From Treponema sp. (GTDB taxonomy: Bacteria; Spirochaetota; Spirochaetia; Treponematales; Treponemataceae): a DNA stretch of 64,000 bases. Every line of letters begins with the position of its first letter. Position 1 is the first letter of the stretch. Below the pieces are notes generated by a model. It made no database searches and was not told the origin of the DNA. It was given only the letters and a program-made list of their open reading frames with translations. Positions 1,621 to 19,749 of this stretch are shown one piece after another. The translations under genes were made by a program, and so were the position numbers. The DNA lies in contig JAZQQW010000051.1 in the NCBI GenBank assembly GCA_045629255.1, positions 1,134-65,133 of the forward strand. The letters run 5' to 3'.

Positions 1621-1805
1621 AACAAGATTGTAGCACACAAAATCAAAATTGTATCTAGGACATATTAAAAATATATAAAAGCAAAAATAGAAATAAAAGA
1701 TTCCGGGATTTTTCTTCAGAACAGGGAACAGGAAAATTCTTTCACGGCAGTAAAATGTCAGCCTCAGACTGTCAATGTGATATACGCAACCCCAATGGCA
1801 CGCAT

Positions 1806-2702
1806 TTACAAAACAAAAGTTCTTTTGCGGGCAAGCTTCCGGCGCTGTTTTTCGTTGAGCATAGCCTGGTCAGCCTGGCGGAATCCTTCTTCAAACGACA
1901 GTGAACTGTCTGCAATCGTAGCCGCCCCCATCGAAACAGAGACATCCTTATTCTGATGAAAAATATCTTTGAGGGCGTTCTGCATCTGTTCAATATATGC
2001 TGCGGCACCGCTTTCGTGAGTTCTCTCGCACAGAATAATAAACTCGTCTCCGCCGATACGGAAAACTTTGTTTGCAGGCTCCATGCATTTTTGCATAACG
2101 GAACTAACTGTATTCAAAAGCATGTCACCATATTCATGTCCAAGATTATCATTTATCAGCTTGAGACAGTCACAGTCTGCAACTATGATACTGAATGGAT
2201 ATGTCAGATTATTCGAGTTCTCATTTTTCCACATCTCGTATGCTTTGCGGTTTCGAAGTCCTGTCATGCCGTCTGTAAAAGCAGCATTTTCTGCCTTTAA
2301 CCGCATTTGAGTAAGCTCTGTTATATCATTTACAACGCCAATTATTCCGACGATTTTTTTATCGCTGTCAAAAACAGGCTGTTTTTCAACTTCAAAGTAA
2401 TGCTCATAACCGTCGAAAAACATATTCGATGTATATTTACAGCCTTTTCCTGTTGCAAGTATCTTTTTGTCTTCTTGAAAAAAACGTTCGCCGGCTTTTT
2501 TTCCAGGCTGAATTTCCTTGTCAGTTTTGCCTATTATCGTCCACTCAGGAGAATCTTTTCTCCTGTTTACCTCATAGCACCGGCGGCTTAAATACTGATA
2601 ACGGCATTCCGTATCTTTAAAAAAAATATGAGCTGGAACACTGTCAAAAAGAAGAGGCAGAAGATTTACATCTATATTTACAGGAACACTACTGTCGTTC
2701 AT
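1806..2702 (-). CDS. PAS-like sensor domain plus GGDEF diguanylate cyclase
   Basis: 298-aa ORF. C-terminal half has TGLRNR, DCDCLKLINDNLGHEYGD and RIGGDEF, the classic GGDEF active site. Confidence 0.85.
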   Translation of the reverse strand: MNDSSVPVNIDVNLLPLLFDSVPAHIFFKDTECRYQYLSRRCYEVNRRKDSPEWTIIGKTDKEIQPGKKAGERFFQEDKKILATGKGCKYTSNMFFDGYEHYFEVEKQPVFDSDKKIVGIIGVVNDITELTQMRLKAENAAFTDGMTGLRNRKAYEMWKNENSNNLTYPFSIIVADCDCLKLINDNLGHEYGDMLLNTVSSVMQKCMEPANKVFRIGGDEFIILCERTHESGAAAYIEQMQNALKDIFHQNKDVSVSMGAATIADSSLSFEEGFRQADQAMLNEKQRRKLARKRTFVL

Positions 2703-2877
2703 CTGAAATACCTTATTATCGCAAAATTAAAGGCACCCGCAAAAACAGAACAAGATGCCGGATGTGTCTGAAATCTCTGAAAAATGAAGTTTTCAGAAAA
2801 GTGCATTACACTATCTAAAAGTTTAACACAGGATTTTTCAGAAAACAACACAAAACACATAAGCTTTTATAGAAAAA

Positions 2878-3567
2878 TCAGTCTGTCATGGAAAACTCTT
2901 CCAGCTGTCCGATTTTATCAAGTTCGGAAATAACTGAGTTAAATTCATCGGCATTCGGAGCCTTGACTGAATAATGCAAAATCAGCTGGTGACTTGCCAT
3001 TATGCGGCTTATGTTTACATCCATTACACGGAAACCTTCTTTTTCAAGGCACAGGCGAACTTTGGACAAATCAACATCGTCATTATCCTGATAAACCATG
3101 TGAACTTTCTTGTTCTTGCCGCCCGGAAAAAGTTTTTCTTCGAATTTATCAAGATATACAAGCATGATAAGTGCAATTACAAGAACAACACCAGACTGAA
3201 GGTAAAGTCCGGCTCCTATTGCAAGTCCAAGAGCAGATGCTGTCCAGACAACGGCAGCAGAAGTGAGACCTCTGATATTCATGCCCTGATGAATGATTGT
3301 ACCTCCACCCAGAAAACCAATGCCGCTTACAACGCCTGCAATAATTCTGGTCGGGTCACCGCCATCAAATCCTTTCTGTACCTGAATCTCTGTGAGCAGA
3401 TAAGACAAGATGGACAGCAAAGTCGATGACACACTGATCAAAACAAGAGTACGCATTCCCATAACCTGATAGCGATGCTTTCTCTCAAGACCAAGCAGAG
3501 AACCGCACACAACACTTGCAAAAATTTTTATCAGAGAATCTATAATAAAATCTAAATCAAAATTCAT
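2878..3567 (-). CDS. MgtC/SapB family membrane protein
   Basis: 229-aa ORF. LLGLERKHR...GMRT motif, 4-5 hydrophobic helices, soluble C-terminal domain. Confidence 0.8.
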   Translation of the reverse strand: MNFDLDFIIDSLIKIFASVVCGSLLGLERKHRYQVMGMRTLVLISVSSTLLSILSYLLTEIQVQKGFDGGDPTRIIAGVVSGIGFLGGGTIIHQGMNIRGLTSAAVVWTASALGLAIGAGLYLQSGVVLVIALIMLVYLDKFEEKLFPGGKNKKVHMVYQDNDDVDLSKVRLCLEKEGFRVMDVNISRIMASHQLILHYSVKAPNADEFNSVISELDKIGQLEEFSMTD

Positions 3568-4361
3568 TTCTTTTTCTTCCCAAAAAGTGAAAATCCATTA
3601 GTAGAAATATAACGTTTGCCAGCTTCTATCCAGTTTGCAGAAAGTTTTGCATCAAGCTCAGTCTTTGCTTCCTCTACTGAATCCAGATAAGAACAGAGCC
3701 ATTTTGCAAACTCAACGTCGCTTGCAGAAACTTCCCCGCCAGCATCTCCGCGTACAAGCAGGATGTTTACGTATGACTTTCCGCCGTACAGAACTGCAAT
3801 GTTTTCTGCAAACGCCATAAAAGCAGATGCAGCAGCTGCAACAACAGGAGACGCTACAGGAGAAGAACCGTTTTTGACACCCGGCGAATGCTGAACATCG
3901 AACAAATCCGGAGTTTCTTTTATCATGAAAATCAGAAAACCCGGTACACCAGATGAATTTCTCTTTTCAAACCGTGACAGTATTTCCAGAGTCATAATCT
4001 GAAACGGCAAAATAAGCTCGTCACATCCATGTATGCATTCATTTACAGAAAGCTGATTTTCTATAGACGCAAACCATTCCTCATCAAAGTAAATGACAGC
4101 TTCGTCTATATTGCCGAAAATACTTTCTGTCCGCAGTATAACAGTCTTTGAAGAAATCGGTGAAGATTTATGCCACTCCACGACAGCAATTCCAGAAGCT
4201 TCGCTTATCTTTCTGATCTTATCAGTATCATCAAGAGTTTCTTCTGTATTTTCTTCCTCAGGACCTGTTATTGAAATGCTTCGTCCTGAAAGAGACAAAC
4301 CGTCGGTAAACTTATTTCCGGCAGGCATCTCTTTTCCAACAACGAGTATAGTTTTTGCCAT
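3564..4361 (-). CDS. hypothetical protein, 4-nt overlap with the downstream MgtC-family gene
   Basis: 265-aa intact ORF with coding-like composition and ATGA-type overlap at 3564-3567. No motif recognised. Confidence 0.5.
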   Translation of the reverse strand: MAKTILVVGKEMPAGNKFTDGLSLSGRSISITGPEEENTEETLDDTDKIRKISEASGIAVVEWHKSSPISSKTVILRTESIFGNIDEAVIYFDEEWFASIENQLSVNECIHGCDELILPFQIMTLEILSRFEKRNSSGVPGFLIFMIKETPDLFDVQHSPGVKNGSSPVASPVVAAAASAFMAFAENIAVLYGGKSYVNILLVRGDAGGEVSASDVEFAKWLCSYLDSVEEAKTELDAKLSANWIEAGKRYISTNGFSLFGKKKK

Positions 4362-4428
4362 AAGTACAGATTATAACATACCAATATAGACTTTGCAAAC
4401 AAGTTACATATTGATATACTGTTAAATT

Positions 4429-5658
4429 ATGAGAATTTGGCTTAAATACATAATCGGTATCGCTCTTGGTTTAGCATTTGCTTTGTTTTTCCCGGCTGGT
4501 TCAAAAAATGCCCGGGAAGTACTGGATTTTATCACAGACGTCATCATACATTGCGGACGCTACACTTTGGTTCCGCTTCTGTTCTTTTCTATTGCAACAG
4601 CATGTTACAAGCTCAGAGAAGACAAGCTGATACTCAAGACAGGTATCTGGACATTTCTTGTCATCATAGTGTCTTCGCTGTTTCTGGTTACAGTGGGCCT
4701 TGCCTCTGCTCTTCTCATCAAAATTCCAAGAATTCCTATGTCCATCGAAAGAGTAAACGAAATTCCAACTCTCGATATAAAAGAATTGATTATGGCTTTG
4801 TTCCCTTATTCAAGTTTCCAGTCTCTTTTGAGTGATTCATATCTTTTGCCTTGTTTCATTTTTGCAGGACTTTTGGGAGCAGCTGCAAACGATGACAAAA
4901 TAGGCTCAAAACCAGCCATCACAGTTTTCACATCACTCAGTCACATAGCTTACATTGTCATGGGATTTTTCACAGAAATTCTTTCTATGGGAATGATTGC
5001 CATTTCATGCAGATGGGCTATAAATTTCATTATCGCAAAGCAGACAAGCCTTTATATGCCTCTGTTCATTCTGCTTACAGGTATTTTCCTTTTTGTAGCA
5101 CTGATTATTTATCCGCTGTGCATCAGATTTATCTGTGCAGAAAATCATCCGTACCGCGTAATTTTTGCAAGCATTGCGCCGATTCTGGCGGCGTTCTTCA
5201 GCGGCGACACAAATATGACACTTCCGCTTGCCATGCGGCACGGCAAAGAAAGCCTCGGAATCCGCCACAGAATGAATGCAGTAACTTATCCGCTGTTTTC
5301 GATATTCTCACGTGGTGGTGCCGCCCTTATCACCTGCGTGTGCTTCATCGTAATTTTCCGCTCATATTCACTTCTTGAAATCAAGCCTTCGGCAATTCTG
5401 TGGATTGGACTTTTTTCATTTCTGTTTTCTTTTGCGCTCGGAAAACACTCAACAGGCGGAGCTTTCCTGCTTCTGACAATTCTGTGTATCAAGTTCGGAG
5501 GCGGTTACGAAGCAGGTTACCTTCTGCTCAGAGACGCAGCACCAGTTCTGTGCTCGTTTGCAGCAGCTTTCGACGTACTTACAGCTATGGCAGGAAGCTA
5601 CATAATCGCAACAAAGACAGACTGCGTAATAAGAGTTGATCTCAAAAAATTTATCTAA
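4429..5658 (+). CDS. dicarboxylate/amino acid:cation symporter-like membrane transporter
   Basis: 409-aa polytopic ORF. AAFFSGDTNMTLPLAMRH resembles the AFxTxSSxATLPxxM signature of the DAACS family. Confidence 0.6.
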   Translation: MRIWLKYIIGIALGLAFALFFPAGSKNAREVLDFITDVIIHCGRYTLVPLLFFSIATACYKLREDKLILKTGIWTFLVIIVSSLFLVTVGLASALLIKIPRIPMSIERVNEIPTLDIKELIMALFPYSSFQSLLSDSYLLPCFIFAGLLGAAANDDKIGSKPAITVFTSLSHIAYIVMGFFTEILSMGMIAISCRWAINFIIAKQTSLYMPLFILLTGIFLFVALIIYPLCIRFICAENHPYRVIFASIAPILAAFFSGDTNMTLPLAMRHGKESLGIRHRMNAVTYPLFSIFSRGGAALITCVCFIVIFRSYSLLEIKPSAILWIGLFSFLFSFALGKHSTGGAFLLLTILCIKFGGGYEAGYLLLRDAAPVLCSFAAAFDVLTAMAGSYIIATKTDCVIRVDLKKFI

Positions 5659-5786
5659 CTTCCCTCTTAAGTTTTTCAAGACGCCCCAGATTACCAGAGG
5701 GCGTTTTGGAAAATTGACAGAACCGAATAATGCATATGGTGATTTTTTCAATGCAATTACCGAATATGTTCTGAAAAAAAACATGA

Positions 5787-5845
5787 ATTAAAACACCAAG
5801 CTTCTTCCGTTCAACAGCAATTGATATGAACAGCATTGCATTTGT
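5787..5845 (-). mobile_element. short remnant resembling an ISAs1/H-repeat transposase fragment (copy A of a direct repeat)
   Basis: Minus-strand translation LFISIAVERKKLGV. Nucleotide core 5801-5832 matches 10317-10348 at 27 of 32 positions in my manual alignment. Confidence 0.3.
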
Positions 5846-5902
5846 CCTGGACTTAAAAGATTTTTTCAAACTCCAGGATTTTCCTGTCTTTTTTTTTCAC
5901 TT

Positions 5903-8199
5903 TTATTCTTTTCCTGTTTCAACCACGACATCAAAATTCGCATTCTGAAATCCCAAAAGCTTTGTGTCCGGACTTGCCACATACACAGTCTTCAGCTTGC
6001 TGCATAATTGGAATTCGGCCCATGAGATTTTCTCTATTTTTGGCGGAATCCTTATTTCAGAAATTTTAATTCCCTGAATTGCTTCAAAACCAATTTCCTC
6101 AAGTTCATCATTCAATTCCATTTTTTCAATTGAATAACAGCCATTGAAAGAATAGTCCCCGATTTTTTTTACATGCGGCGGAAGCTTTACATCCGTAAGT
6201 TTTGTGTAGCAAAACGCCCCCCATATTGATTTCAGCAAGACTGTCAGGCAGATTTATGGATTCAAGTGCACTTTCACAAAAGGAATACTCGTCTATTGAT
6301 TTTATTCCGGAACCCAATGTCACTTTTTTGAGCATATTGCACCCGCTGAAACAATGGCTCGGAATTTTTTCAACGGTATCCGGAATTTCAATTTCTTCAA
6401 TTACAGACTCATAAAAAGCCTGTACACCGATAGTCCTGAGATTTTTTCCCAGATGAACTTTTTTCAGATTTTTGCATTCAGCAAAACATCCGTAAGGAAT
6501 TTCCTCGAGAGAATCCGGGAGCACGATTTCTTCAATCATGGAATTGCTGAACATGCTTTCCGGAAGCTCATCCAAGCCTTCTGAAAGAGTCACTGTCTTG
6601 AACTTTGATTCAGTGCAGAAATCTGAGGAAATGTTTATCTTTTCTACACCAGCAGGAATGTTCAGATTTTCCAGAGGAAAAAATTCAATATCAAGAGTCT
6701 TTTCTCCGTCAGAAAATTCAAAATAAGTTTCCGGCCTGAAAGTTGCAGAATCATCGATGTAGGCAATTTCAGCTTCCGGATCAGCAACAAATTTTTCAAG
6801 GGACTGCGGATATTTTTCTGCAAGAGTCTTTCCGACTGTGATTTTTTTTCAGCGGATTGCCTTCGAAGACACAGTCTCCCAGATAATAAACGGTCGGCGG
6901 AATGGAAATCTCTGAAATGCTGCAGCCACTGAATGCACCTTCATCAATTTCACGGAGATTTGCAGAAAGCTTGACCTCGGAAAGTTTCCTGCAGGACATG
7001 AATGCACTTTCCCTTATGTAGTAATATGTGTCGGCCATTGAAAGAGACTTCAGGGATTTGAAAGCGAAGGCTTTTTTTCCCACAGTCCTTGTCGCAAGAA
7101 TTCTTACGCAGGAAGGAAGTTCGACTTTAGATTTGTGCCCGTTGTATGAACTGATTGTCGTACTGGAGGAAAAAGATTCTCCGGTAACAAAAGGATTTCG
7201 CACCAGACAATATGTTCCAATTACAATGCCCATAACAGCTGCACCGACAGAAGCTGCAACTGCTGTAAGTTTTCTGCCTCTGTTTTTCTTCCGGAGGAGA
7301 AACTGCCTTTCGAACCCGTCTGCAGTTTCTTTTGCGAAATCAGGAATTGTACTTATCGTTTCCTTTCGCTTCAATATGCGTTTATAGACTTCCGCTGCAG
7401 GAACAGAAGTCTGAAAGTTTTTGGTCACATATTCCAGAAGCAGATTTTTGACATGCTTAGAATATGAACATATTTTTTCCAGTTCCTCTGACGTCAGCTG
7501 TGAAAAATATCCTGCTCTGCATCCATAAGTTTTTTGCAGATAGTAAGGTTTTGTTGCCGTTTTGTATTCTGTCGTGACAAAGAATCTGCTTGCTCCGGAA
7601 AAACTGACAGCATTTCCATATGATAAAGGAGCTCTGTTTGCCTCGTGAACATACGGCTTGCAGCGTTTTTCTCCGTCAATATATTTTGAGGAATCTGAAT
7701 CCATGTAAAGACAGACGTTTTCGGATTCCACCAGAGCTTCGGCAAGATTCAGGTTTACGAATTTTTTTTCTCTGCATCCCTGTTCTGCAAGGTCAATGAC
7801 AAAGTCTTCAATGGTACGGAAAATGTTGAGATGGTCTTTGTAAGAACAATTGACATTTCCTTTTTTCTGTACGACAACGATTGCATTTCCATCACACTTT
7901 TTGAATTTCCATGTAAAAACAACAGCGGAGCTTTGCGTCACAAGAACGTCACCGTATTCGCTGGCCAGAGCAATGAATCTGAGTTCATCGGTAAACAGGT
8001 GCTTGAGCCACCCCGAAATTCCGAAGAGAATCTTTCCATTTTCTGTTACAAAATAAAACCTGTATTCATCAAGTGAAGAAAAATCCAGGACACCTTCCGA
8101 AAAATAATTTCTGACGGATTCGAAAAGTTTTTCTGTAATCTGTTCCATCAGAGTCTCTCCAATATCGTCAGGATAATGGCTGTTACAAAAAGAACGCAT
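5903..8199 (-). pseudogene. membrane-anchored BspA/LrrA-type leucine-rich-repeat protein gene split into three frames by two single-base homopolymer insertions
   Basis: ORFs 6796-8199, 6126-6593 and 5903-6238 lie in three frames. All carry ~23-aa repeats of the type IxIPxSLxxIxxxAFxxCxxLxxV. There is a TM helix LTAVAASVGAAVMGIVIGTYCLV. Removing one A from A8 (plus-strand T8 6842-6849) and one G from G6 (plus-strand C6 6217-6222) gives one continuous ORF of about 764 codons. Confidence 0.75.
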
Positions 8200-8337
8200 G
8201 CCACAGTTACCCAGAATCTATTTTTGTTCTGTTCTTTCCATAAGATATTCTTTCATTGTATTATGCAGCTCATTAACTTTTATGCTTCAGTCCAAATCGC
8301 GGTCAGGCAGAACAATCAAATCAACAATATGCTGTAC

Positions 8338-8846
8338 AAAGGAGCCTTTCGCACTTTGCCGAAAACCTCCTTTTGAAAAAAGGAGCTTATCGCACTTTGC
8401 CGAAACCTTCCTTTTGAAAAAAGGAGCTTATCGCACTTTGCCGAAAGCTTCCTTTTGAAAAAAGGAGCTTATCGCACTTTGGAGAAAGCCTCATTTTTAA
8501 AACGTCTTTTCGCACTTTGGCGAAAGCCTCATTTTTAAAACGTCTTTTCGCACTTTGCCGAAAACCTCCTTTTGAAAAAAGGAGCTTATCGCACTTTGCC
8601 GAAAACCTCCTTTTGAAAAAAGGAGCTTATCGCACTTTGCCGAAAGCTTCCTTTTGAAAAAAGGAGCTTATCGCACTTTGCCGAAATCTTCCTTTTGAAA
8701 AAAGGAGCTTATCGCACTTTGCCGAAAACTTCCTTTTGAAAAAAGGAGCTTATCGCACTTTGCCGGAAACCTCATTTTTAAAACGTCTTTTCGCACTTTG
8801 CCGGAAACCTCATTTTTAAAACGTCTTTTCGCACTTTGCCGGAAAC
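8338..8846. repeat. non-coding tandem array: 8 x 41-bp units and 4 x 38-bp units plus partial ends, order A3-B2-A5-B2-partial B
   Basis: Units start at 8350, 8391, 8432 (A); 8473, 8511 (B); 8549, 8590, 8631, 8672, 8713 (A); 8754, 8792 (B); 8830 (partial). Shared box is CGCACTTTG(C/G)(C/A/G)GAAA. A = ...CCTCCTTTTGAAAAAAGGAGCTTAT, B = ...CCTCATTTTTAAAACGTCTTTT. Confidence 0.95.
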
Positions 8847-8874
8847 AGGGGCGATGGCATATTTGTGCATATAT

Positions 8875-8904
8875 TTGTCAACAGCCTTGAATATGTGCTA
8901 GAAT
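8875..8904 (+). promoter_or_regulatory. sigma70-like promoter candidate for the toxin-leader ORF
   Basis: TTGTCA (8875-8880), 18-nt spacer, TGcTAGAAT extended -10 (hexamer 8899-8904), 20 nt before ATG at 8925. Confidence 0.5.
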
Positions 8905-8924
8905 GGCAGAACGGAATGCACAAT

Positions 8925-9114
8925 ATGAATAAAAAATTAATTTTACTGGTGACTGTTTTTTTATGCGGCAGTTTACTTTGGGCAGAAAACTGGCCGTTTG
9001 ACCGGAAAAGTGCGTGTTTAAGGCAAAAAATACGCAGTTAGTCCAATCAACGCCAATTTGTACCACTACGCCGGCAACAATCCGGTTAAGTATGTGGACC
9101 CGGATGGTAGATAA
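8925..9114 (+). pseudogene. decayed polymorphic-toxin leader: signal peptide plus Rhs-type pre-toxin junction
   Basis: ATG 8925 gives MNKKLILLVTVFLCGSLLWAEN..., stopping at 9039-9041. The +1 frame continues GKKYAVSPINANLYHYAGNNPVKYVDPDGR, ending TAA 9112-9114. Dropping one A of A6 (9025-9030) joins the two frames. Confidence 0.6.
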
Positions 9115-9141
9115 GACTAGGCTCCTTTAACTTATAAAGAT

Positions 9142-9726
9142 TTGTGGTGGAATGCATTTAAGACAAATAACCTGTATAATGGCAATTTTGTAAAAAATAA
9201 TCAGACTGTCGGTTTGGCGTTTGAAAGGGCTGTCGGACAAGCCTTCGGGCTGGAAAAAAATACAGTTTCATTTTTTTCTACTACCAGAAAATCAGCTGTT
9301 GTTCCTGATTTTGTAGCTAAACAGTTTATTTGTACTGAAACAAAAGAGTTAATTGATATTTATATGACGGGCATATTTATTGAAGGAAAAACATCCAGAA
9401 TAGTGGATTTAAATGGAAGTACAAAAGGTCAGATGAAATCTATGGTAGATGCATGTGCAAATCAAATATCCGTAATGGGGCATATTGCGGGAAAAGAAGG
9501 AGATGCAAGAATGTATATTGTAACACCCGCAGATACAATAATATCTAATGATTTGATATCTTATGCAACGGAAAGAAACGTTAAACTGTATCAATTTACA
9601 GCCATGTATGATAAAGATGATGTTTCGAGAATAAAACTCTCAGAGGGTAGACTGTTGAATCCAAAAATAGATGAAAATATATTTTTTTCTCTAGGTACAA
9701 TTGGTGAAGGAAAATTAAGTTTTTAA
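9142..9726 (+). CDS. putative toxin domain with restriction-endonuclease-like (PD-(D/E)xK) motifs
   Basis: 194-aa ORF in the same frame as the NNPVKYVDPDG junction, separated by two stops (TAA 9112, TAG 9118). Contains GLAFERAVG, VVPDF and IFIEGK, an E...PD...ExK arrangement. Confidence 0.5.
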   Translation: MWWNAFKTNNLYNGNFVKNNQTVGLAFERAVGQAFGLEKNTVSFFSTTRKSAVVPDFVAKQFICTETKELIDIYMTGIFIEGKTSRIVDLNGSTKGQMKSMVDACANQISVMGHIAGKEGDARMYIVTPADTIISNDLISYATERNVKLYQFTAMYDKDDVSRIKLSEGRLLNPKIDENIFFSLGTIGEGKLSF

Positions 9727-9741
9727 AGGAAAAATAGGAAA

Positions 9742-10248
9742 ATGGAAAAAGAATATTCAGTAAAACTTTACGACGACAGTATAATTGAGTTTAAGTTAAT
9801 CAGCAAAGATATTTTTGATGATTTAGTAAAGCAGGAAGGATGGAAAGAATATCCAGAAGCGTTAGAATTTGAGTGTTCACTTGTATTTATAAAAGCATAT
9901 ACAAATGGAACAGAATATATTGCCTTAATGGACGACAAAATAAAAGAGAATGCAATTTACTTTAAGAATGAATTTTTCTTTGAACTTTTGAAAACAAATG
10001 AATTAGTTTTTTTCGGAGAAAGAAAATATAATCCTGATGAAGCACATTTTATGTTGATGTATTATAACGAAAAAACATCTGTTCTTTTAAAAAATCATAA
10101 TATTAAGAAAATAAAAGAAGAAACAAAAAGTAAGGAAGGATATTATGAAATTGATGACGGAAGATATATGTATTTATTTGAAGACGAAAGAGCAGAAGTT
10201 TTTATGAATTTCAGAGACATGGAAATTCTTGAAGACGTAATAGGATAA
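9742..10248 (+). CDS. putative cognate immunity protein
   Basis: 168-aa acidic ORF starting 16 nt after the toxin ORF, same strand. Call is positional only. Confidence 0.4.
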   Translation: MEKEYSVKLYDDSIIEFKLISKDIFDDLVKQEGWKEYPEALEFECSLVFIKAYTNGTEYIALMDDKIKENAIYFKNEFFFELLKTNELVFFGERKYNPDEAHFMLMYYNEKTSVLLKNHNIKKIKEETKSKEGYYEIDDGRYMYLFEDERAEVFMNFRDMEILEDVIG

Positions 10249-10304
10249 ATCAATCTTGTAAAAAAGTCGATAAACCGGCAGTCTAATGGCTAATTTACAG
10301 GGGT

Positions 10305-10362
10305 TATTAAAAACCAGTTTCTTCCCATCAATAGCAATTGATATGAATAAAGGGCATTTTCT
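10305..10362 (-). mobile_element. short remnant resembling an ISAs1/H-repeat transposase fragment (copy B of the direct repeat)
   Basis: Minus-strand translation ...IQCFYTENCRKCPLFISIAIDGKKL resembles the ...ECFxxWxxxC...VIAIDGKTLR segment of ISAs1-family transposases. Same orientation as copy A. Confidence 0.35.
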
Positions 10363-10476
10363 GCAATTTTCAGTGTAAAAACATTGGATTTTGCAGCACA
10401 AAGTTTTACATACAGGCAGTTTCAAAACAATGGCACCGGAAAATGATTTCTGCTATAATAAAACTACGAGGAAAAC

Positions 10477-12060
10477 ATGACTTTAAGAAAATATCCAATC
10501 GGCTGGCAGGATTTTGCAAAGATACGTAATGAAAACTTTGTTTATGTCGACAAAACTGAATATATCTATAATCTTGCAAAGGAACCTCATCCTTATTTTT
10601 TAAGCCGTCCACGCCGGTTCGGTAAAAGTCTTTTGCTTTCCACGATGCGATATTACTTTGAAGGCAGAAAGGAACTTTTTGAAGGCCTGAAAATTGCTGA
10701 GCTTGAAACTGAATGGATAAAATACCCGGTTATCAACATAAGTTTTGGCAGAAGCTCCTATGAAATGTCAGGCAGCCTTGAAACAATAATAGATTTGATT
10801 CTCTGGGAAAAAGAAAGTGAATTTAACCTGAATGAAAATCATTCTGAAAAATTAAATTTTGCAGTAAGGTTTCAGGTTCTCATTGAAAAGATGTTTAAGG
10901 CAACAGGAAAACAGGTTGTCGTTTTAGTGGATGAATATGATAAGCCTATCCTCGATGCACTTTATTCAGAAAATGAAGAAAAGCACCGGCAGATTTTAAG
11001 GAATTTCTACGGAACGTTAAAAGACTGTGACCAGTATCTGAAATTCATTTTCATCACAGGAATTACAAAAATCAGCCACGTGAACATTTTCTCCGGCCTC
11101 AATCAGCTTGATGACATAAGCATGAACAGGCATTATTCATCAATCTGCGGTATTTCAGAAACTGAACTTGATGAGTATTTTACGGAAGACATAAAGGCAC
11201 TTGCTGAATCAAAGAAGTTTGATTACGGAAAAACAAAAGCAAAGCTTTCCCAGATGTATGACGGCTATCATTTTACTGACAATACAGAAGGAGTCTATAA
11301 TCCGTTCTGCCTGTTAAAATGTTTCAGTGAAGAGCGGTTCGGTTCTTACTGGTTTGAAACGGGGACCCCGACAGTTCTTGTAAAGACGCTTTTGCATCAG
11401 CCGCTTTTTCTTGCAAACCTGATTGGCGGCCGCAGGGTAAGTGAAGACGATTTTAAAAACTATGACCCGGAAACAAAAAACATGCTCCCGGTTGTCTATC
11501 AGAGCGGGTACCTTACGATAAAGTCTTTTGATGAATCTTCTGAAAGATATATACTTGGTTTTCCGAACAAGGAAGTTGAAGCGGGCTTTTTAAAAATCCT
11601 TGTAAAGAAATTTGCAAAGTTTCCGGAAGATGACATGGGCTTTGCAGTTGACAACATTACGGACGCCCTTAAAGTTCATGATGTAGATAAGGCTTTGAAA
11701 ATAATTCAGGCTTCAATTGCAGATTTACCGACAGTCGTAAAAAAAGACATGTGCGAAAATTACTATGAAAGCATTACTCACATCATTTTCAGGTTGACCG
11801 GCTTCAATGTCATTTCTGAACTTCAGTCTATAAACGGAAGAAGTGACGTAATTTTAACCACCAATGACAGCGTTTACATATTTGAGCTCAAAATGGATAA
11901 AGGCCGCGAAACAGACAGCGTTTTGGAAGAAGCCCTTTTCCAGATAGACGACAAAGGATACGCAGACCGTTTTGCAGTAAGTGGAAAACCCATGATTAAA
12001 ACCGGTATCGTATTTTCAAGTGAAGGAAAGGGAATTACCGGCTGGAAAGTAAGAACTTAA
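10477..12060 (+). CDS. AAA-ATPase-like (PF09820-type) protein with C-terminal PD-(D/E)XK nuclease-like domain
   Basis: 527 aa. The N-terminus YPIGWQDFAKIRNENFVYVDKTEYIYNL...FLSRPRRFGKSLLLST is the hallmark of this family. The C-terminal GRSDVILTTNDSVYIFELKMDK fits a D...ExK core. Confidence 0.85.
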   Translation: MTLRKYPIGWQDFAKIRNENFVYVDKTEYIYNLAKEPHPYFLSRPRRFGKSLLLSTMRYYFEGRKELFEGLKIAELETEWIKYPVINISFGRSSYEMSGSLETIIDLILWEKESEFNLNENHSEKLNFAVRFQVLIEKMFKATGKQVVVLVDEYDKPILDALYSENEEKHRQILRNFYGTLKDCDQYLKFIFITGITKISHVNIFSGLNQLDDISMNRHYSSICGISETELDEYFTEDIKALAESKKFDYGKTKAKLSQMYDGYHFTDNTEGVYNPFCLLKCFSEERFGSYWFETGTPTVLVKTLLHQPLFLANLIGGRRVSEDDFKNYDPETKNMLPVVYQSGYLTIKSFDESSERYILGFPNKEVEAGFLKILVKKFAKFPEDDMGFAVDNITDALKVHDVDKALKIIQASIADLPTVVKKDMCENYYESITHIIFRLTGFNVISELQSINGRSDVILTTNDSVYIFELKMDKGRETDSVLEEALFQIDDKGYADRFAVSGKPMIKTGIVFSSEGKGITGWKVRT

Positions 12061-12146
12061 ATCCTGCAAACGACAATGAAAACATTCGGCTTCAGACGAT
12101 GTTCTATCACTACGCCGGAAACAACCCGGTAAGGAAAGGATTTTAG
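12060..12146 (+). pseudogene. second, truncated copy of the pre-toxin junction
   Basis: Translation NPANDNENIRLQTMFYHYAGNNPVRKGF*. The stretch TATCACTACGCCGGAAACAACCCGGT closely matches TACCACTACGCCGGCAACAATCCGGT at 9061-9086. It starts at the last base of the AAA-ATPase stop codon. Confidence 0.6.
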
Positions 12147-12204
12147 AAATTCATTTTATTGTTTAAGAAGCGAAGCTCATTTTGACGATGGAAGTGAAAT
12201 TCTT

Positions 12205-12396
12205 TTGTTTAGTAATGATGAGTTTATAAAACTTCTAGGTTATAGAGATTTAGGACTTGATGAAAAAGATGATGTAATAATAGATGATATTCATTCTATC
12301 ATAATGCCGAGAAAAGAATTTGACTGCATTGTCCGTGAATCGCTCGATTATATTTTAACGGAGCGTGATAAATTTATGGAAAACAGTCAGATATAG
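12205..12396 (+). CDS. small orphan ORF, possibly the C-terminal domain belonging to the truncated junction
   Basis: 63-aa TTG-start ORF. Its frame is open back to 12133, directly against the NNPV motif but offset by one base. Confidence 0.3.
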   Translation: MFSNDEFIKLLGYRDLGLDEKDDVIIDDIHSIIMPRKEFDCIVRESLDYILTERDKFMENSQI

Positions 12397-12482
12397 ATTG
12401 GAAAATATAAAATCAGGAGTTGCAAAAGTGAAAAAACAATCAAAAGACTTACATAATTGCCGGACTTGAGGATTCTCTAGGC

Positions 12483-12953
12483 TTGAATGGAGATGTCAAA
12501 GTAAAAATTCCTTTGTATGAGGCAAAAACTGGTAATTTAAAATTGGATTCTACAGGTGTTATTCAATATATAGATAGTATAGATTCATTGATTCTGGCTC
12601 CGAATGAAACTAGTCAAGGAAGTTTTGATGGAGCAAAAGATAAAAACGGAAATTATTTTAAAGTAACTGCTAGAAATACTGTGATTGACTTTGAAGTAAA
12701 TGACAAAAGTCTGAAAGTCATAGGAACTCATGATTTTATAGTAAATTGGTGTGGAGACTGTTACAAGAAACTGGCAAATATTGTAAAAGGTTTGAAAGGC
12801 GAATCTAAAAAAATATTATCGGGATTTAAGAAAGCTGGTTCTTTGGATGCAAAACGTCTGTCTGGATATTGGGATAAAAGTTTTACACGTGATTGCGGTG
12901 CAACATACGATGAATGGGTAGCAAGTATAATTCTTATGAACAATTCAGTTTAA
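12483..12953 (+). CDS. hypothetical protein (orphan island ORF)
   Basis: 156-aa ORF with a WCGDC motif reminiscent of thioredoxin WCGPC, but without recognisable fold context. Start is uncertain; see the homopolymer finding. Confidence 0.4.
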   Translation: MNGDVKVKIPLYEAKTGNLKLDSTGVIQYIDSIDSLILAPNETSQGSFDGAKDKNGNYFKVTARNTVIDFEVNDKSLKVIGTHDFIVNWCGDCYKKLANIVKGLKGESKKILSGFKKAGSLDAKRLSGYWDKSFTRDCGATYDEWVASIILMNNSV

Positions 12954-13019
12954 GGAAGTATTTGAATGAAAGCGGCTGTAAAGCTTAGTTTTAAAGCTTT
13001 CTTTTGTTTTCTTCCATGT

Positions 13020-13046
13020 CTGTCAGCCGGACATACCGGCTGACAG
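13020..13046. terminator. perfect 11-bp hairpin between convergent genes
   Basis: CTGTCAGCCGG-acata-CCGGCTGACAG followed by TTTA. Confidence 0.5.
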
Positions 13047-13061
13047 TTTATGTTCTGTGTA

Positions 13062-14594
13062 TTAATCTCTGTTATGATTTTTTTTGTCAAATTTGTGATT
13101 AACTTTGATGTTTAAGACAAGAGCTCCTGATTTTGAGTCGATGTGTGACATGTCTCTCGGAACATAAGTAGAATATGCTTCACCTGAATGCATATTGTCA
13201 TCTGTTACGATAAGAAGAAGTCCTTGTTTAGAACATGCGTAATATCCTGTTCTTTTGCCGGGAAGAGAAATAGGATCGCTTGTTATGCGGAAAGAAAGCT
13301 TGCCTTTGTGTAGTGTTGCTTCTTTTTCAAAGTCGGATTCCTGAAGGGTTTCTTTCTGTTCTGATTTTTCAAGTATTTCAGTTTCTGCAATTTTTTGTAC
13401 GTCTTCTGCGGCCTGAACATTTCTCTTTGCTGCGATAAAAGAAAGAACTGCTCTTTCTTTGGGAATATAAATGCTCTTCGAAAAGCTTCTGAGTGCCTGC
13501 GGTGCATCTTCTGTAGAAAATGAAAAGTTGCACCATTTGCCGCCGCGCTTGCCGTCCATCGGGCATTCTGAGCAGTGTGTACATGGAGCTGATGGGAAAA
13601 ACTGTCTTTTCTGCAGAGCTGCACGCAGCAGGCTGATAAATCGTCCGCAGTTAGGTACGCCCGGCTCTACGATAAACATGCGTGTATCTTCGTTGTTTTT
13701 GTTCATGTATGACAAAAGTTCGAGTGCATATTTTTTTGCAAGGTAGTCAGGCGGCATGTCTGCGTTCTGCATGATTTCGTTGAATACGTTTGCACTTGTC
13801 AAAAAGTCAACTTTTTCTTTGACCGGTGTGCCGAGCTGTCCTGTTACGCGGAGTATTTTCCATGGTTCGCATTCAAGTGCTGCGGAAACTGAGAGAAAGA
13901 TATTTTCTCCGGCTGTAAGTGCCTGTGATGAAATATCCATGCAGTACCATGTGATTTTTTTGTTTCTCAGTTCTGGCCGTGAAAGGAAAATGGCAATCGG
14001 TACTGTAAGCGGTCCGCTTCCGATGTCCAGACATATAGAACCGTCGCCGATATTGAAAAAATCGTCCGGCAGATTTGCAAAGAGTCTTGTGAGGCGTACG
14101 ATGTTCCACCACAGATAGTAGTGAATGTATGCACTCAAGGCTGTGGTTTCATTCATGTAGCCGAGTCTTCTGTCTTCGCGTTCATCTGTCAGTTCGTGGC
14201 TGAGTGAGCGGATTTGTCCGGGAAGAAGGGCTCTCTGTTTAGATGTGAGCGGATATATTGAACTGACAATTTTTTCAAAATCATTTATGACTTTGCGGCC
14301 GGCTGCGTCCAGTGCACTCAAATCAAAAAGGGCTTCTGTTTTGTCTGCCTGACAGAAATTTACTCTGTGACCTGCGGTTGAATGAAAATTCTCATCTGAA
14401 GATTTTGTGCGGTGTGCGTTCTTTTGTGATTTTTTGCCGGCTGTGCGTTTGTTATCTGATTTTTCTTCTTCTCTGCGTCTTTTTCTGGCTTCTTTGCCTT
14501 CGATTCTCTTTACTTTCTGTTCAAGTGTAATGCCTTGTTTTTTTTCATACCATTTTAATTCTATTTTATCACTGGCATTTTCTTTTTCGTTCAT
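13062..14594 (-). CDS. Rsm22-like SAM-dependent methyltransferase with basic N-terminal extension
   Basis: 510 aa. CLDIGSGPLT (SAM motif I) and a CTHCSECPMDGKRGGKWCNF cysteine cluster typical of Rsm22-family proteins. Confidence 0.65.
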   Translation of the reverse strand: MNEKENASDKIELKWYEKKQGITLEQKVKRIEGKEARKRRREEEKSDNKRTAGKKSQKNAHRTKSSDENFHSTAGHRVNFCQADKTEALFDLSALDAAGRKVINDFEKIVSSIYPLTSKQRALLPGQIRSLSHELTDEREDRRLGYMNETTALSAYIHYYLWWNIVRLTRLFANLPDDFFNIGDGSICLDIGSGPLTVPIAIFLSRPELRNKKITWYCMDISSQALTAGENIFLSVSAALECEPWKILRVTGQLGTPVKEKVDFLTSANVFNEIMQNADMPPDYLAKKYALELLSYMNKNNEDTRMFIVEPGVPNCGRFISLLRAALQKRQFFPSAPCTHCSECPMDGKRGGKWCNFSFSTEDAPQALRSFSKSIYIPKERAVLSFIAAKRNVQAAEDVQKIAETEILEKSEQKETLQESDFEKEATLHKGKLSFRITSDPISLPGKRTGYYACSKQGLLLIVTDDNMHSGEAYSTYVPRDMSHIDSKSGALVLNIKVNHKFDKKNHNRD

Positions 14595-14812
14595 ACAATT
14601 CCTCTCATATATGTTTAACCGCTACGCTGTTAGATTAAACTTAATACAATGATTTACTGGATTAACAGTCAGCGTTTGTCTCTTTTTTGTCTGCTGGTGA
14701 AATCTTCGAAAAGTTTTGTTTTTGAAGACTCTTTTAAACATTACCGGATATTGCGGTAAAACCATGGGGCTTACCGTAGTTTCAACTGTGTTAAAATACG
14801 CAGTTAAGCAGC

Positions 14813-15181
14813 TCAGTCTGTTTTTCTGGTTGTTCTCAATGCTCTGTCACAGGCTTCTGTCAGTTTCTTGAGCAAAAGGTACATTTCCCCCAGCTGTTCG
14901 CGGATTTCTCTGACAGTAGCGATGGTCTGTGCTTTCTGTTCACATATTTCTGAATCCTTGATGATCTGTGCTCCGGCTTTGCGTGCGCTTAACTTTTTAT
15001 CATAAACAAGATGTTTCATTCTCAGGATTATTTCTAATTCTCTCTGCGAATAAAAACGACATCCTCTGTAATCTTTTGTCGGAGAGAAAAAAGGAACTGA
15101 ATTTTCCCAGCGTCGAAGAATATGAGCTTTGACGCCGGAAAGCTGTTCAATATCGCTGATCAGATATTTTGCCATAGGCAT
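14813..15181 (-). CDS. MerR-family transcriptional regulator
   Basis: 122 aa. N-terminal helix-turn-helix YLISDIEQLSGVKAHILRRWE...RFYSQRELEIILRMKHL. Confidence 0.8.
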   Translation of the reverse strand: MPMAKYLISDIEQLSGVKAHILRRWENSVPFFSPTKDYRGCRFYSQRELEIILRMKHLVYDKKLSARKAGAQIIKDSEICEQKAQTIATVREIREQLGEMYLLLKKLTEACDRALRTTRKTD

Positions 15182-15184
15182 TCA

Positions 15185-16729
15185 TCAGTTGTCTTGTTTG
15201 TCTCCGCGGTTTTCCCATTTCTGGCGGCTTGCCTTCATTTCTATCTGGACAGGAATCTGGTCAAAACCAAGGTCTTCACGAATTCTGTTCTTGAGATATG
15301 TGACATAGCTTTGTGGGACGTTGTCCGGGCGTGTTGCAAAAATCAGGAATTTAATCGGATTTATGCTTGTTTGCGTCATATATCTGACTTTGAAATGTAT
15401 GGCTTTTGTAGCTGGCGGCGGATATTTTGCAAGCCAGTCATTGAGTGCGTTGTTCAAAGACGCTGTATCCACTTTTCTTGTGAGCTGTTCGTAAATAGAA
15501 AGCGCTGTATCCATCAGTGTTTTGATGCCGTCTGCATTCTTTGCACTGATTTCGACAATCGGTGCCCAGTTCATCTGACCGAACATCGTGCGGAAATAGT
15601 CCTCGATTTCTTTGCGGGCTTTGTTGCTCTTGTCTTCAACAAGATCCCATTTGTTGAGGATAAATATTACGCCGCGTCCTTTCTGGTATGCAAGCGATGT
15701 AATTTTTTTATCCTGCTCAGAAAGTCCTTGTACTGCGTCCATCATGATAAAGGCAATGTCGCACTCTTCGAGCGTTTTGATTGCTCTGTTGACTGAGTAA
15801 TACTCGACATTTTCGTTGACCTTTGATTTGCGGCGGATTCCTGCTGTATCAAGAATTTCTATGTCTTTGTTGTTATAGCGGAAAGATCCTTCTACAACAT
15901 CTCGTGTCGTGCCGGCATAATCGCTGACTATAGAAGCTTCTGTGTGTGTGAGTACGTTGCTGAGTGTGGATTTGCCGGTGTTCGGCTTGCCGAGTATGGC
16001 AATGCGGATTGGTTTGTCCTGCTCAGAGCCTTCTGTGACACGGGAGAAATCAAGGTCTTTAACCATTGCTTCTGAAAGTTTTGGAATGCCGTCTCCGTGT
16101 GTTGCAGATATGAAAACAATGTCGTTGAAACCGTATTTCATGTAGTTATACGCCAGTGTTTCGTTTTTGCCGCCTTCTGTTTTGTTGACAGCTGCAATGA
16201 GCTTGTTCCAGTATGGTCTCATCTGCTGGATAAATTCCTGGTCTTCTGCGGTTTCTTCTGTAGCATCGAGCAAAAGCAGAATACGGTCTGCTTTTTTTAT
16301 CATTTCGACAGTTTTTGCTACAACAAGGTCATCCATCTCGCTTTCTCTGGATGTGTAGTCACGTGTAAGTTTGTATCCGCCTGTATCCATAAGATGTACA
16401 GGTTTGCCTGCGATGAAACATGTTCCTTCGACAGGGTCGCGTGTAACGCCTGGTGTCGGATCTGTGATTGCACGTCTTGTATGTGTGAGTGCGTTGAACA
16501 GAGTAGATTTGCCTACGTTCGGACGGCCTGCGATAACTATGAGTGGCAGATTAAAGTAAACTTTTTCTGGGTAAAACTGTCTGATTCGGGACTTTTCGTC
16601 TAAATCATCACTTTTTTTATCTTCAGCTGTGATTTTTGAGTCATTCTGTGATTCTTCTGCCAGAGTTTCTTCTACTGGCTTTACTGGCTTCGGTTTTGAG
16701 AAGTCAGGCTTTTGCTTCTTTTTTTTCAT
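15185..16729 (-). CDS. der: ribosome-associated GTPase Der/EngA
   Basis: Two GTPase domains (GRPNVGKSTLFN and GKPNTGKSTLSN, DTGG/DTAG, NKTE/NKWD) plus a KH-like C-terminus. About 60-aa K/E-rich N-terminal extension. Confidence 0.95.
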   Translation of the reverse strand: MKKKKQKPDFSKPKPVKPVEETLAEESQNDSKITAEDKKSDDLDEKSRIRQFYPEKVYFNLPLIVIAGRPNVGKSTLFNALTHTRRAITDPTPGVTRDPVEGTCFIAGKPVHLMDTGGYKLTRDYTSRESEMDDLVVAKTVEMIKKADRILLLLDATEETAEDQEFIQQMRPYWNKLIAAVNKTEGGKNETLAYNYMKYGFNDIVFISATHGDGIPKLSEAMVKDLDFSRVTEGSEQDKPIRIAILGKPNTGKSTLSNVLTHTEASIVSDYAGTTRDVVEGSFRYNNKDIEILDTAGIRRKSKVNENVEYYSVNRAIKTLEECDIAFIMMDAVQGLSEQDKKITSLAYQKGRGVIFILNKWDLVEDKSNKARKEIEDYFRTMFGQMNWAPIVEISAKNADGIKTLMDTALSIYEQLTRKVDTASLNNALNDWLAKYPPPATKAIHFKVRYMTQTSINPIKFLIFATRPDNVPQSYVTYLKNRIREDLGFDQIPVQIEMKASRQKWENRGDKQDN

Positions 16730-18426: not shown

Positions 18427-18745
18427 TCCCTCATATTACCGAGAAATAAACATCTAGTCAATTCTCACTATAGGAAGAAAATCACCTTTAAAAACTCTGA
18501 ATGTGTCTGACATAGTTAAAGCCAAAAATTCTATTTTTTTTAATCAAGAAAGTTAAAAAAACGCAGATTTAGTTTAATGCAGTTTTAAACTTTTAAGTAT
18601 AAACAGAAGAGACATGATTTCGGGTTTTGCAATTTTAAAGAAATGTCACGAGAATTAGATTTTCTGTTAATAAAATCTAGTCCGCGTGACAATTTTTGGA
18701 ATCCTTGAATCAAAACAAGAATTTCTGGGAAAATCGAAATTGGGG

Positions 18746-19522: not shown

Positions 19523-19662
19523 AATCTGTCTGCTTTTAGTTAATGATAGCTTAAAAAAAAGACTTACTTGGGCTGCCTGCGGTTTTTCATGCTTTATAAA
19601 AATCTGCCGGTAACATGTAAATCTAAGATTTTTTAAAGGCTCGTTTTAAGAAAGGAAACTTA

Positions 19663-19731
19663 TTATTGCGTCAGGTTTACGCCGGACGCAATAATTTAGG
19701 GGACTTCTAAAAAACAGAAGTTTTTTAGAAG
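19663..19731 (-). terminator. two long perfect hairpins downstream of ychJ
   Basis: TTATTGCGTC-12 nt-GACGCAATAA (19663-19694) and CTTCTAAAAAAC-agaa-GTTTTTTAGAAG (19704-19731). U-tracts are weak. Confidence 0.4.
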
Positions 19732-19749
19732 CGCTATACTTTTATAAGG

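Follow-up and report, generated by a model that had tools for sequence, protein, structure and literature searches.

A tandem array of short, palindrome-bearing units occupies positions 8338-8846 of the 64-kb stretch of Treponema sp. DNA analysed here (contig JAZQQW010000051.1 of assembly GCA_045629255.1; hereafter the window), in the intergenic region between a divergent leucine-rich repeat (LRR) gene and a toxin-like cassette. To judge by its sequence, the array is a member of an apparently undescribed repeat family, one form of which, an array of 5-7 units, is located upstream of every gene examined that codes for a DUF6261 (PF19775) protein. The reading tentatively favoured for the window array, with a confidence that falls somewhat short of even, is that of a DNA-level, helically phased array of predicted binding sites, the copy number of which is unstable.

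The earlier note on this DNA had treated the array as a unique local oddity, a view superseded by the genome scans. A scan of 185,579 species-representative genomes, in which two consecutive boxes at unit spacing were required, yielded two loci in Treponema metagenome-assembled genomes (MAGs; L002 and L010) and a third true array (L003) on a contig titled Anaerolineaceae, while the remaining seven matches were put down to chance without individual checks, save for the coding repeat L001. L002 and L010 comprise 15-16 units each, of 40-41 bp, and hold the core of the window box in a clean palindrome, CTTCCGCA-nnn-TGCGGAAAG, followed by a second flavour, TTTCTACA-nn-TGTAGAAA. A broader pattern, with the spacing restricted to 35-44 bp, recovered 76 loci from a metagenome collection, and about 25-30 of these are genuine arrays, which have 4-22 units and repeat every 37-42 bp, mostly every 40-41 bp in this pattern-selected sample. 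Two hits, L001 (36 bp) and L036 (39 bp), were discarded as likely coding repeats solely because their periods are multiples of 3. The hosts of the family are Treponema and other Treponemataceae, together with Paludibacter-like Bacteroidota contigs. Nothing similar was found in 50,697 phage and 72,556 plasmid records, and 2.9 million viral contigs contained a single array, L011, in a prophage replication module. Full-text searches of the literature returned no description of the box or of such arrays in Treponema, and the earlier statement that the repeat belongs to no described family stands across Rfam, the literature on repetitive extragenic palindromes (REPs), the phage and plasmid records and these full-text searches.

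The canonical family box is TTTCCGCA-nnn-TGCGGAAA, of which the window carries a degenerate variant. The outer TTTCC/GGAAA parts of the arms are recurrent, the inner 3-4 bp co-vary between the arms (GCA/TGC, GTA/TAC, TAC/GTA, TTA/TAA and GCAC/GTGC), the centre of the box is free and the filler of approximately 21 bp, in which an A/T-rich mini-palindrome is often seen at the middle of the unit, is unrelated between sub-families. Despite these unrelated fillers the boxes are spaced at 40-41 bp, also in arrays that were not chosen by spacing. The window array shares the family features of head-to-tail units, absence of unique spacers, one dyad box per unit (T-rich/A-rich outer arms around a GC core) and a Treponemataceae host; the core CGCACTTTGC is common to its box and to those of the Treponema MAGs, and its own bulged box variant recurs in L028 (TTTCGCAnnnTGCCGAAAG). 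Its four 38-bp class B units deviate from the family period of 40-41 bp. Solo arrays, which are not linked to DUF6261 genes, are found between convergent genes (L002/L010 and L014) and between divergent genes (the window and L051). Further arrays are found beside dapB/aspartate kinase (L025), beside a TonB-dependent receptor gene (L016) and after 3' ends (L037 and L060), and on some contigs several arrays lie a few kb apart (L025, L016 and L028). Many arrays are found at contig ends, as they break short-read assemblies, and they would suit strain typing. Two 40-bp-period arrays that may or may not belong to the family, at 12639-13189 in L017 and 694-1564 in L063 (14 and 22 copies, 92-96% matches), consist of a different unit, GCACACTGCTGAAATGTGGTGGGTAAGGAAGGACTGTTGC, with a weak palindrome only, and share the family period. 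In L003, two GC-rich hairpins (CCCTTCCCCTTgaaAGGGAGGGAGG and CCCTCCCTTttaAGGGAGGGGG) are located at 4200-4270, between the RusA gene and the phage-module array.

The link with DUF6261 emerged through Pfam scans of the neighbouring genes alone, as BLAST clustering of the neighbours returned no recurrent gene, only sets of orthologous loci. In L026, L027, L050 and L057, which represent three lineages with approximately 25% DUF6261 protein identity between them, a gap of 50-190 bp separates the end of the array from the DUF6261 gene downstream. The MAGs in which DUF6261 proteins are encoded come from Treponemataceae and Paludibacter, which are also the two groups with arrays. In an array-blind test, the contigs of DUF6261 homologues were fetched with long contigs as the only criterion, giving four distinct loci, all of which contain 5-7 palindromic boxes at 40-41 bp spacing within an upstream gap of 325-480 bp. 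The box reads TTCCTTA-nnn-TAAGGAA in L095 and L099, TTTCGCTC-n-GAGCGAAA in L101 and TTGCGTA-nnn-TACGCAA in L103. No second conserved gene was identified upstream of the arrays, the 196-aa (L095) and 193-aa (L103) open reading frames (ORFs) being unrelated. In three Paludibacter-type loci, with protein identities of about 25%, the boxes lie at about -333, -292, -251, -210 and -168 from the ATG, positions that are fixed within 2 bp across distant lineages, and TAnnTTTG promoter motifs occur between the array and the DUF6261 gene. This fixed register to the ATG points to a property of DNA phasing. When L026, L101 and L103 are aligned, each unit retains its own filler, site by site, whereas the five boxes have all switched jointly from TTCCGC..GCGGAA to TTGCGTA..TACGCAA. 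The conserved filler and the joint switch together rule out homogenisation of whole units and indicate a sequence-specific trans-acting partner; as a pattern in aligned sequences, the joint switching implies a lineage-specific trans-acting factor. Flavour and filler type are common to the arrays of one assembly, irrespective of DUF6261 linkage, as seen for L057 with L035 and for L050 with L076. The linked arrays are also stable across strains, with seven units and approximately 95% identity where the flanks are 95.5-97% identical.

The DUF6261 protein itself was considered as the binder of the boxes and rejected on structure, charge and library searches. Its AlphaFold model (pLDDT 91.8) is an elongated all-helical bundle, for which no significant PDB or viral-structure match and no helix-turn-helix, ribbon-helix-helix or winged-helix module was found, and the family is acidic (median pI 5.3). 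Searches of NCBIfam, PADLOC and PHROG gave no match, or none that was informative in the case of PHROG, and no account of DUF6261 function was found in the literature. As an acidic, all-helical protein whose model has no DNA-binding fold, DUF6261 is probably the regulated cargo rather than the binder. Its genes often edge defence-type clusters, including Cap15 with a CD-NTase (cyclic oligonucleotide-based antiphage signalling system, CBASS) and a type IIG restriction-modification enzyme in L095, AAA_15/21 with HNH (Septu-like) in L101, SIR2_2 in L026, a DNA methylase in L057 and HNH nucleases in L027 and L103. Directly downstream of DUF6261 in L103, a gene for a 136-aa Y1 (IS200/RAYT-like) transposase (4770-5550) has REP-like hairpins of its own on both sides (CCCCCTCGTTTnnAAACGAGGGGG) that show no relation to the DUF6261 boxes, and a second, weak Y1_Tnp ORF occurs upstream (2230-2790). 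In L105/L106, approximately 5-8 kb from the DUF6261 locus (15796-18700), two genes for HU-HIG/HU-like DNA-binding proteins occur together with toxin-antitoxin genes of the HicB-like and BrnT/BrnA kinds, as does a tandem repeat with a 22-bp unit (3.4 copies) at 18605-18678. It is conceivable that HU-like paralogues are a candidate class for the box binder, with nothing in the data linking them to the arrays.

In the mechanism proposed, a DNA-binding factor that is dimeric and specific to the lineage is predicted to use the boxes as its duplex-DNA binding sites. With sites spaced at 40-41 bp, or about four helical turns, the dimers would all line up along the same helical face, which would allow them to assemble cooperatively upstream of a promoter, and the A/T-rich element in the middle of the unit may help bending. 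The ancestral, stable form of the array would control the DUF6261 promoter, while solo arrays would represent copies at other intergenic sites, where units could be gained or lost by slippage or by unequal exchange between near-identical units, changing the number of sites. The 12-13 sites in the window would set or titrate the occupancy of the factor at the toxin-cassette promoter and at the promoter region of the divergently oriented LRR gene. A more far-reaching proposal, considered improbable, is that the arrays and DUF6261 form an undescribed regulatory module, in which a lineage-specific DNA-binding factor controls DUF6261 by assembling on the fixed platform of 5-7 boxes, while solo arrays of the same flavour, such as that of the window, act as copy-number-variable decoys or control sites that titrate the factor and tune neighbouring genes heritably and rapidly. 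Should the favoured reading hold, treponemes and some Bacteroidota would carry an unnoticed class of cis-element, consisting of evenly phased palindromic sites that co-evolve with an unknown factor, one form being fixed upstream of the uncharacterised and widely distributed DUF6261 and the other expanding and contracting quickly elsewhere. This would provide a first functional handle on DUF6261 and a concrete route to a new DNA-binding specificity, and would suggest a mechanism for the fast, heritable tuning of nearby genes, in the window a surface LRR gene and a toxin cassette, in genetically difficult organisms.

The imperfect boxes bear on whether the units function as DNA or as RNA. Among 55 distinct imperfect boxes, the mismatches are of transversion type in 24, A.C in 19 and G.T in 12, and five arrays contain both A.C and G.T mismatches. 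The lack of a G.U bias argues against selection for an RNA hairpin and fits half-sites that are read independently on DNA. It was nevertheless considered whether the array acts as RNA. Its transcribed hairpin units would then act on a protein as its sponge or partner, much as type III antitoxins do, where toxI-type tandem RNA repeats are encoded upstream of toxN, and the partner would be DUF6261 or the toxin cassette. The resemblance to toxI arrays lies in the 5-7 spacerless tandem units of approximately 41 nt (within the range of ~36-45 nt), which lie directly upstream of, and co-oriented with, a small gene often found in defence islands and are lineage-specific in sequence, as are the toxI families. 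The bulged C in the stem of the window and L028 box would also be tolerated better by a hairpin than by a duplex operator, and the acidic, helical DUF6261 is no obvious DNA binder. Apart from the mismatch counts, this explanation is opposed by the position of the promoter-like motifs, which sit between the array and the gene rather than upstream of the array, by the box positions fixed relative to the ATG, by the filler, which differs between the units of linked arrays where type III antitoxin units are near-identical, and by the unfavourable three-nucleotide loops. Furthermore, no ToxN/AbiEii-like protein and no PADLOC match were found, many arrays of the family, that of the window included, have no partner gene, and Rfam at gathering thresholds gave no match in the window or in 20 loci. 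The closest Rfam candidate, the TD-1 RNA (a Treponema denticola motif), was rejected as noise at 18.6 bits (E = 1.5-2.5) against a threshold of 64.5, its sub-threshold alignment resting on AT-rich stems and large insertions. A toxI-type system is excluded because no ToxN-family gene is present and the promoter is wrongly placed, and action as RNA in general is considered unlikely. Of the three options raised in the earlier note, the repeated small-RNA locus is consequently the least supported, given that Rfam returned no match, that no wobble signature is seen and that the promoter-like motifs separate the array from the gene. Best supported is the option of an iteron-like, protein-binding array located in a promoter region, which gains from the period, the DUF6261 linkage, the joint box switching and the lack of G.U bias.

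Within the window, Tandem Repeats Finder (TRF) identified a single array of 509 bp at 8338-8846 (period 41, 12.7 copies, 91% matches, score 661), and a second call gave a higher-order period of 281 bp, corresponding to 5A+2B units (1.8 copies, 93% matches). Splitting at the invariant CGCACTTTG gives 13 boxes, belonging to eight class A units of 41 bp, four class B units of 38 bp and one truncated unit in the order A3-B2-A5-B2-partial, so that both approaches agree with the two-flavour array of 12 full units and partial ends described earlier. On the plus strand, a leading partial unit of 12 bp (8338-8349; AAAGGAGCCTTT), which resembles a class A tail and aligns with that of unit A7 in the 281-bp period, is followed by class A units 1-3 (8350-8472; 3 x 41 bp), each composed of the box CGCACTTTGCCGAAA, a variable patch of 4-5 nt, the palindrome CTCCTTTT-GAA-AAAAGGAG and CTTAT. 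Class B units 4-5 (8473-8548; 2 x 38 bp) carry the box variants CGCACTTTGGAGAAA and CGCACTTTGGCGAAA and the mid-unit element TTTTTAAAA. Among class A units 6-10 (8549-8753; 5 x 41 bp), units 6 and 7 repeat the sequence of unit 1 exactly, as unit 8 does that of unit 3, while class B units 11-12 (8754-8829; 2 x 38 bp) are mutually identical with the box CGCACTTTGCCGGAAA, and the terminal truncated unit (8830-8846) consists of the 13th box alone (CGCACTTTGCCGGAAAC). The window box can also be written TTTCGCAnnnTGCCGAAA. The box formula given earlier, with two variable positions ahead of GAAA, does not fit units 11-13 exactly, since an additional G makes these read CGCACTTTGCCGGAAA; the patch that varies behind GAAA (AACCT, ACCTT, AGCTT, ATCTT or AACTT) is seen as described. 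The observation that adjacent units are the most alike applies in part, since A1, A6 and A7 on the one hand and A3 and A8 on the other are identical at a distance because the 281-bp block has been duplicated. The near-identical units and the duplicated block indicate a recent expansion, in line with the recent local duplication that had been suggested. A 15-mer box, allowing up to three mismatches, has 16 matches in the 64-kb window against 2.3 expected, 13 within the array and three elsewhere, and none of 100 shuffles reached 16; outside the array no further family boxes beyond chance-level matches were found in the window. A coding repeat was rejected for the window array, as neither 41 nor 38 is a multiple of 3.

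The units possess a dyad symmetry that is absent from the earlier description of the array. Together with the preceding T's, the window box forms an imperfect palindrome, TTTCGCA-CTT-TGC[C]GAAA, one arm of which has an extra C, and in unit 5 the box with its preceding TTT is a perfect palindrome, TTTCGC-ACTTTG-GCGAAA, with its stem at 8507-8526. Class A units additionally contain a perfect palindrome with 8-bp arms, CTCCTTTT-GAA-AAAAGGAG, inside a 33-nt quasi-palindrome, exemplified at 8367-8385 (3-bp centre; no strand assigned). The 8-bp arms are restricted to the A units in which the patch ends in CCTCC (units 1, 6 and 7), the arms in the remaining A units being 7 bp. The centre of this mid-unit palindrome lies 21 bp from that of the box, and dyad centres thus alternate every ~20.5 bp. 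Class B units have TTTTTAAAA in its place, and comparable A/T-rich mid-unit palindromes occur in the L099 and L103 arrays. In folded consensus trimers the boxes pair between units. An inverted-repeat check around the window array revealed no terminal inverted repeats (TIRs) bracketing it.

Such hairpins could stop or pause read-through transcription, which would make the array a cluster of insulators or terminators. The L057 units score as terminator-like on the strand opposite the gene (a hairpin with a T-run a few nt later; 7 versus 0.8 expected), arrays occur between the convergent genes of L002/L010 and L014, and on the minus strand the window class A unit reads CTCCTTTT-TTC-AAAAGGAG followed by GTTTTC. 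In the canonical box, however, the stem has the T-run ahead of it and the A-run behind it, and both extend the stem rather than trail it, and T-runs that do trail begin 4-6 nt past the stem. The window region contains one terminator-like site against 1.6 expected, arrays upstream of promoters or between divergent genes (the window and L051) have no need of a terminator, and the joint box switching is left unexplained. A terminator function is accordingly held to be very unlikely.

The solo arrays differ markedly from the DUF6261-linked form in their turnover. L002 and L010 represent one locus in close relatives, in which the flanks are 98-99% identical and the arrays 80% (74% counting gaps), with a different number of units; within these arrays identity amounts to 92% in the arms, 74% in the filler and 55% in the loops. 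The orthologous solo arrays L002, L010 and L068 likewise differ in unit number and content between flanks of 98-99% identity. Solo arrays turn over approximately 20 times faster than their flanks and yet keep their arms. In 584 kb, 258 boxes occur in arrays and 35 are solitary, against approximately 20 solitary boxes expected by chance. The earlier option of a copy-number-variable regulatory spacer gains the instability seen in L002, L010 and L068, which would extend to the window array by analogy only.

The same turnover raises the possibility that the window array is a functionless hairpin minisatellite, a copy of a family unit that reached a variable intergenic region, expanded by slippage or unequal exchange and is without a role for the flanking genes, comparable to REPs and bacterial interspersed mosaic elements (BIMEs), to mycobacterial interspersed repetitive units (MIRUs) and to BrickBuilt. 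The palindromes would persist through recent expansion or through self-correction by template switching, and the variable patch is situated at the imperfect part of the 33-nt quasi-palindrome, as templated mutation predicts. The recent expansion evident from the near-identical units and the duplicated 281-bp block, the absence of the array segment from the nearest relatives, its position beside a low-GC island, the degenerate window box and the presence of solo arrays in every intergenic setting, convergent ones included, all accord with this explanation, and BrickBuilt provides a precedent for a spacerless intergenic minisatellite in oral Bacteroidota (PMC4596501). Against it, neutral decay would predict otherwise than the arm, filler and loop identities of the old, diverged solo arrays, the period of 40-41 bp is held across unrelated fillers, and in lineages whose proteins share 25% identity the linked version keeps a fixed place upstream of DUF6261. 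Solitary boxes are at chance level, so there is no REP-like dispersal, and neither flanking TIRs nor a nearby transposase is present. A functionless minisatellite is therefore regarded as doubtful, with a greater claim to consideration than the RNA and terminator explanations.

Several observations weigh against the preferred reading of the window array as phased binding sites. The only recurrent neighbour of the arrays, DUF6261, lacks a DNA-binding fold, and no protein binding the boxes was found. No DUF6261 ORF or remnant is present in the window, the tie of its array to the linked arrays being one of sequence family only, which places it in the solo subclass with L002/L010, L025 and L035. 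Solo arrays between convergent genes (L002/L010) and after 3' ends (L037 and L060) serve no promoter. The window box is a poor duplex palindrome, and the one-base bulge that it shares with L028, the extra C, would be hard for a dimeric reader of duplex DNA to tolerate, while the 38-bp class B units break the 41-bp phase. The units of some sub-families also resemble weak terminators when one of the two strands is read. Lastly, the period distribution of the pattern-selected arrays is biased, and only the loci selected through DUF6261 are unbiased in this respect.

Among known systems, the closest architecture is that of F-plasmid sopC, which consists of 12 direct repeats of 43 bp, every one of them containing a 16-bp inverted repeat to which SopB binds (PMC3177203). 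Both have around a dozen spacerless head-to-tail units of approximately 40 bp, or about four helical turns, with one dyad site in each. In contrast to sopC, the arrays are chromosomal, lack sopA/sopB or parA/parB nearby, sometimes occur several to a genome, have an unrelated box, vary from 4 to 22 units with fast turnover and have DUF6261 rather than ParB as their conserved partner. With iterons and operator arrays such as R1 parC and the lambda origin they share repeated, lineage-specific boxes upstream of a gene with regular phasing, and L003/L011 is located in a phage replication module; unlike iterons, their units are twice the usual length, no Rep/ParR-type gene is present and most adjoin housekeeping or island genes.

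That the array might represent a centromere-like (sopC-type) or origin-like (iteron) site of a chromosome segment or integrated element is suggested by this architecture (12 x 43 bp in sopC versus 12.7 units of 41/38 bp), by the location of the L003/L011 array between the RusA gene and that for a phage AAA_25 replicative ATPase, the place of phage origins, and by the position of the window array at a change of sign in GC skew. TTTC..GAAA outer arms are also a feature of ParB-family sites. Over window positions 1-20000, with only 8 kb available to the left of the array, the skew ranges from -0.06 to -0.16 over 1-8 kb and from +0.05 to +0.29 from 9 kb onwards, the array forming the minimum of cumulative skew and coinciding with the edge of a 33%-GC island (9-13 kb). 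An origin or terminus reading of the skew was dropped because related arrays show no such flip and the low-GC island confounds the signal; the switch may mark the boundary of an island or rearrangement rather than an origin. Pfam scans of 20 window ORFs between 1.8 and 26 kb revealed no ParA/ParB, and no ParA/ParB, Rep, DnaA or integrase gene was found within ~17 kb in the window or adjoining the other arrays. No initiator gene was found near the window array, and only L003/L011 lies beside a phage AAA_25 gene. With the chromosomal housekeeping setting, the occurrence of several arrays a few kb apart on some contigs, the single array in the viral contigs and none in the phage and plasmid records, a centromere or origin function is considered highly improbable.

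Short extragenic imperfect palindromes that can be tandemly reiterated, with more than one flavour side by side and a strain-variable number, are also characteristic of REPs and BIMEs. The GTAG and CGTC REPs are tagged palindromes, dispersed in high copy as singletons and as head-to-head or tail-to-tail pairs, mostly head-to-head, the CGTC type having a loop of 4-5 nt and a CCA tail and the GTAG type being associated with REP-associated tyrosine transposases (RAYTs) (PMC3733652). The present family, unlike these, occurs only in head-to-tail arrays without alternating orientation, with solitary boxes at the level of chance, loops of 1-4 nt, no consistent GTAG/CGTC tag or CCA tail and no RAYT link. 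A REP/RAYT reading was rejected, as the one Y1 transposase seen (L103) is flanked by different hairpins. BrickBuilt of P. gingivalis has a 23-nt unit, leader and tail TIRs related to insertion sequence (IS) elements and a reported bidirectional promoter activity, and the text of the paper makes no mention of a palindrome (PMC4596501). The likeness lies in a spacerless, strictly intergenic tandem array near promoters, at multiple loci per genome in a host-associated anaerobe, and the difference in the 41/38-bp units and lack of TIRs of the window array. MITE/TIR (MITE, a miniature transposable element with inverted repeats) and phage or plasmid element readings were rejected, given the absence of TIRs and the empty phage and plasmid records, as was a CRISPR, since the units abut without unique spacers and the filler is paralogous between units.

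The window represents a Treponema chromosome, as all named homologues of its symporter are from Treponema (best non-self match, 65% identity), and Pfam scans of the same 20 ORFs show the array neighbours to be chromosomal housekeeping genes. The array segment is missing from the nearest relatives (65% identity), with which synteny stops at 5658, and adjoins the 33%-GC island of toxin/immunity-like cassettes. Look-ups of the exact LRR, toxin-like and AAA-ATPase proteins identified no second strain of the window locus, and the symporter is also present on one 2.9-kb contig that ends short of the array. On the minus strand, the divergent gene (6796-8199) codes for a protein of 467 aa carrying a BspA-type LRR_5 domain at its C-terminus, and the start of the gene at 8199 lies 139 bp from the array. 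On the other side, a sigma-70-like promoter match, TTGTCA-18-TAGAAT (8875-8904, plus strand; 10/12 consensus matches and a TG extension), reads into the toxin cassette 29 bp from the array; it is a consensus match only, and the number of such sites in the region equals the shuffle expectation. Both distances agree with those given earlier. The first gene downstream of the array is a small plus-strand ORF of 38 aa (8925-9041; MNKKLILLVTVFLCGSLLW...) with signal-peptide/lipobox-like features, and an RHS-type core end (..NLYHYAGNNPVKYVDPDGR*) overlaps it in another frame and ends at about 9113; from this overlap, the 5' part of the toxin cassette appears to be frameshifted or degenerate. A toxin-like ORF (194 aa) and then an immunity-like ORF (168 aa) follow at 9142-10248 on the plus strand and open the low-GC (33%) island; no significant Pfam match was found for the former and none for the latter.

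The region 8925-10248 resembles an orphan polymorphic-toxin cassette. Three consecutive minus-strand ORFs (111, 155 and 467 aa) with BspA-type LRR_5 repeats occur at 5903-8199, just beyond the point where synteny with the nearest relatives stops, and look like fragments of one or more disrupted LRR surface-protein genes. Within the low-GC island, a gene at 10477-12060 codes for an AAA-ATPase_like protein with a PD-(D/E)XK (PDDEXK_9) domain. The relatives L091/L092 also encode a homologue of this AAA-ATPase_like protein within a few kb of the symporter, on the opposite side of it, suggesting a local rearrangement. TRF also identified a 30-bp tandem repeat of 2.2 copies (score 75) at 14401-14464, near the 5' end of a minus-strand gene (13062-14594) for a 510-aa Rsm22-like methyltransferase.

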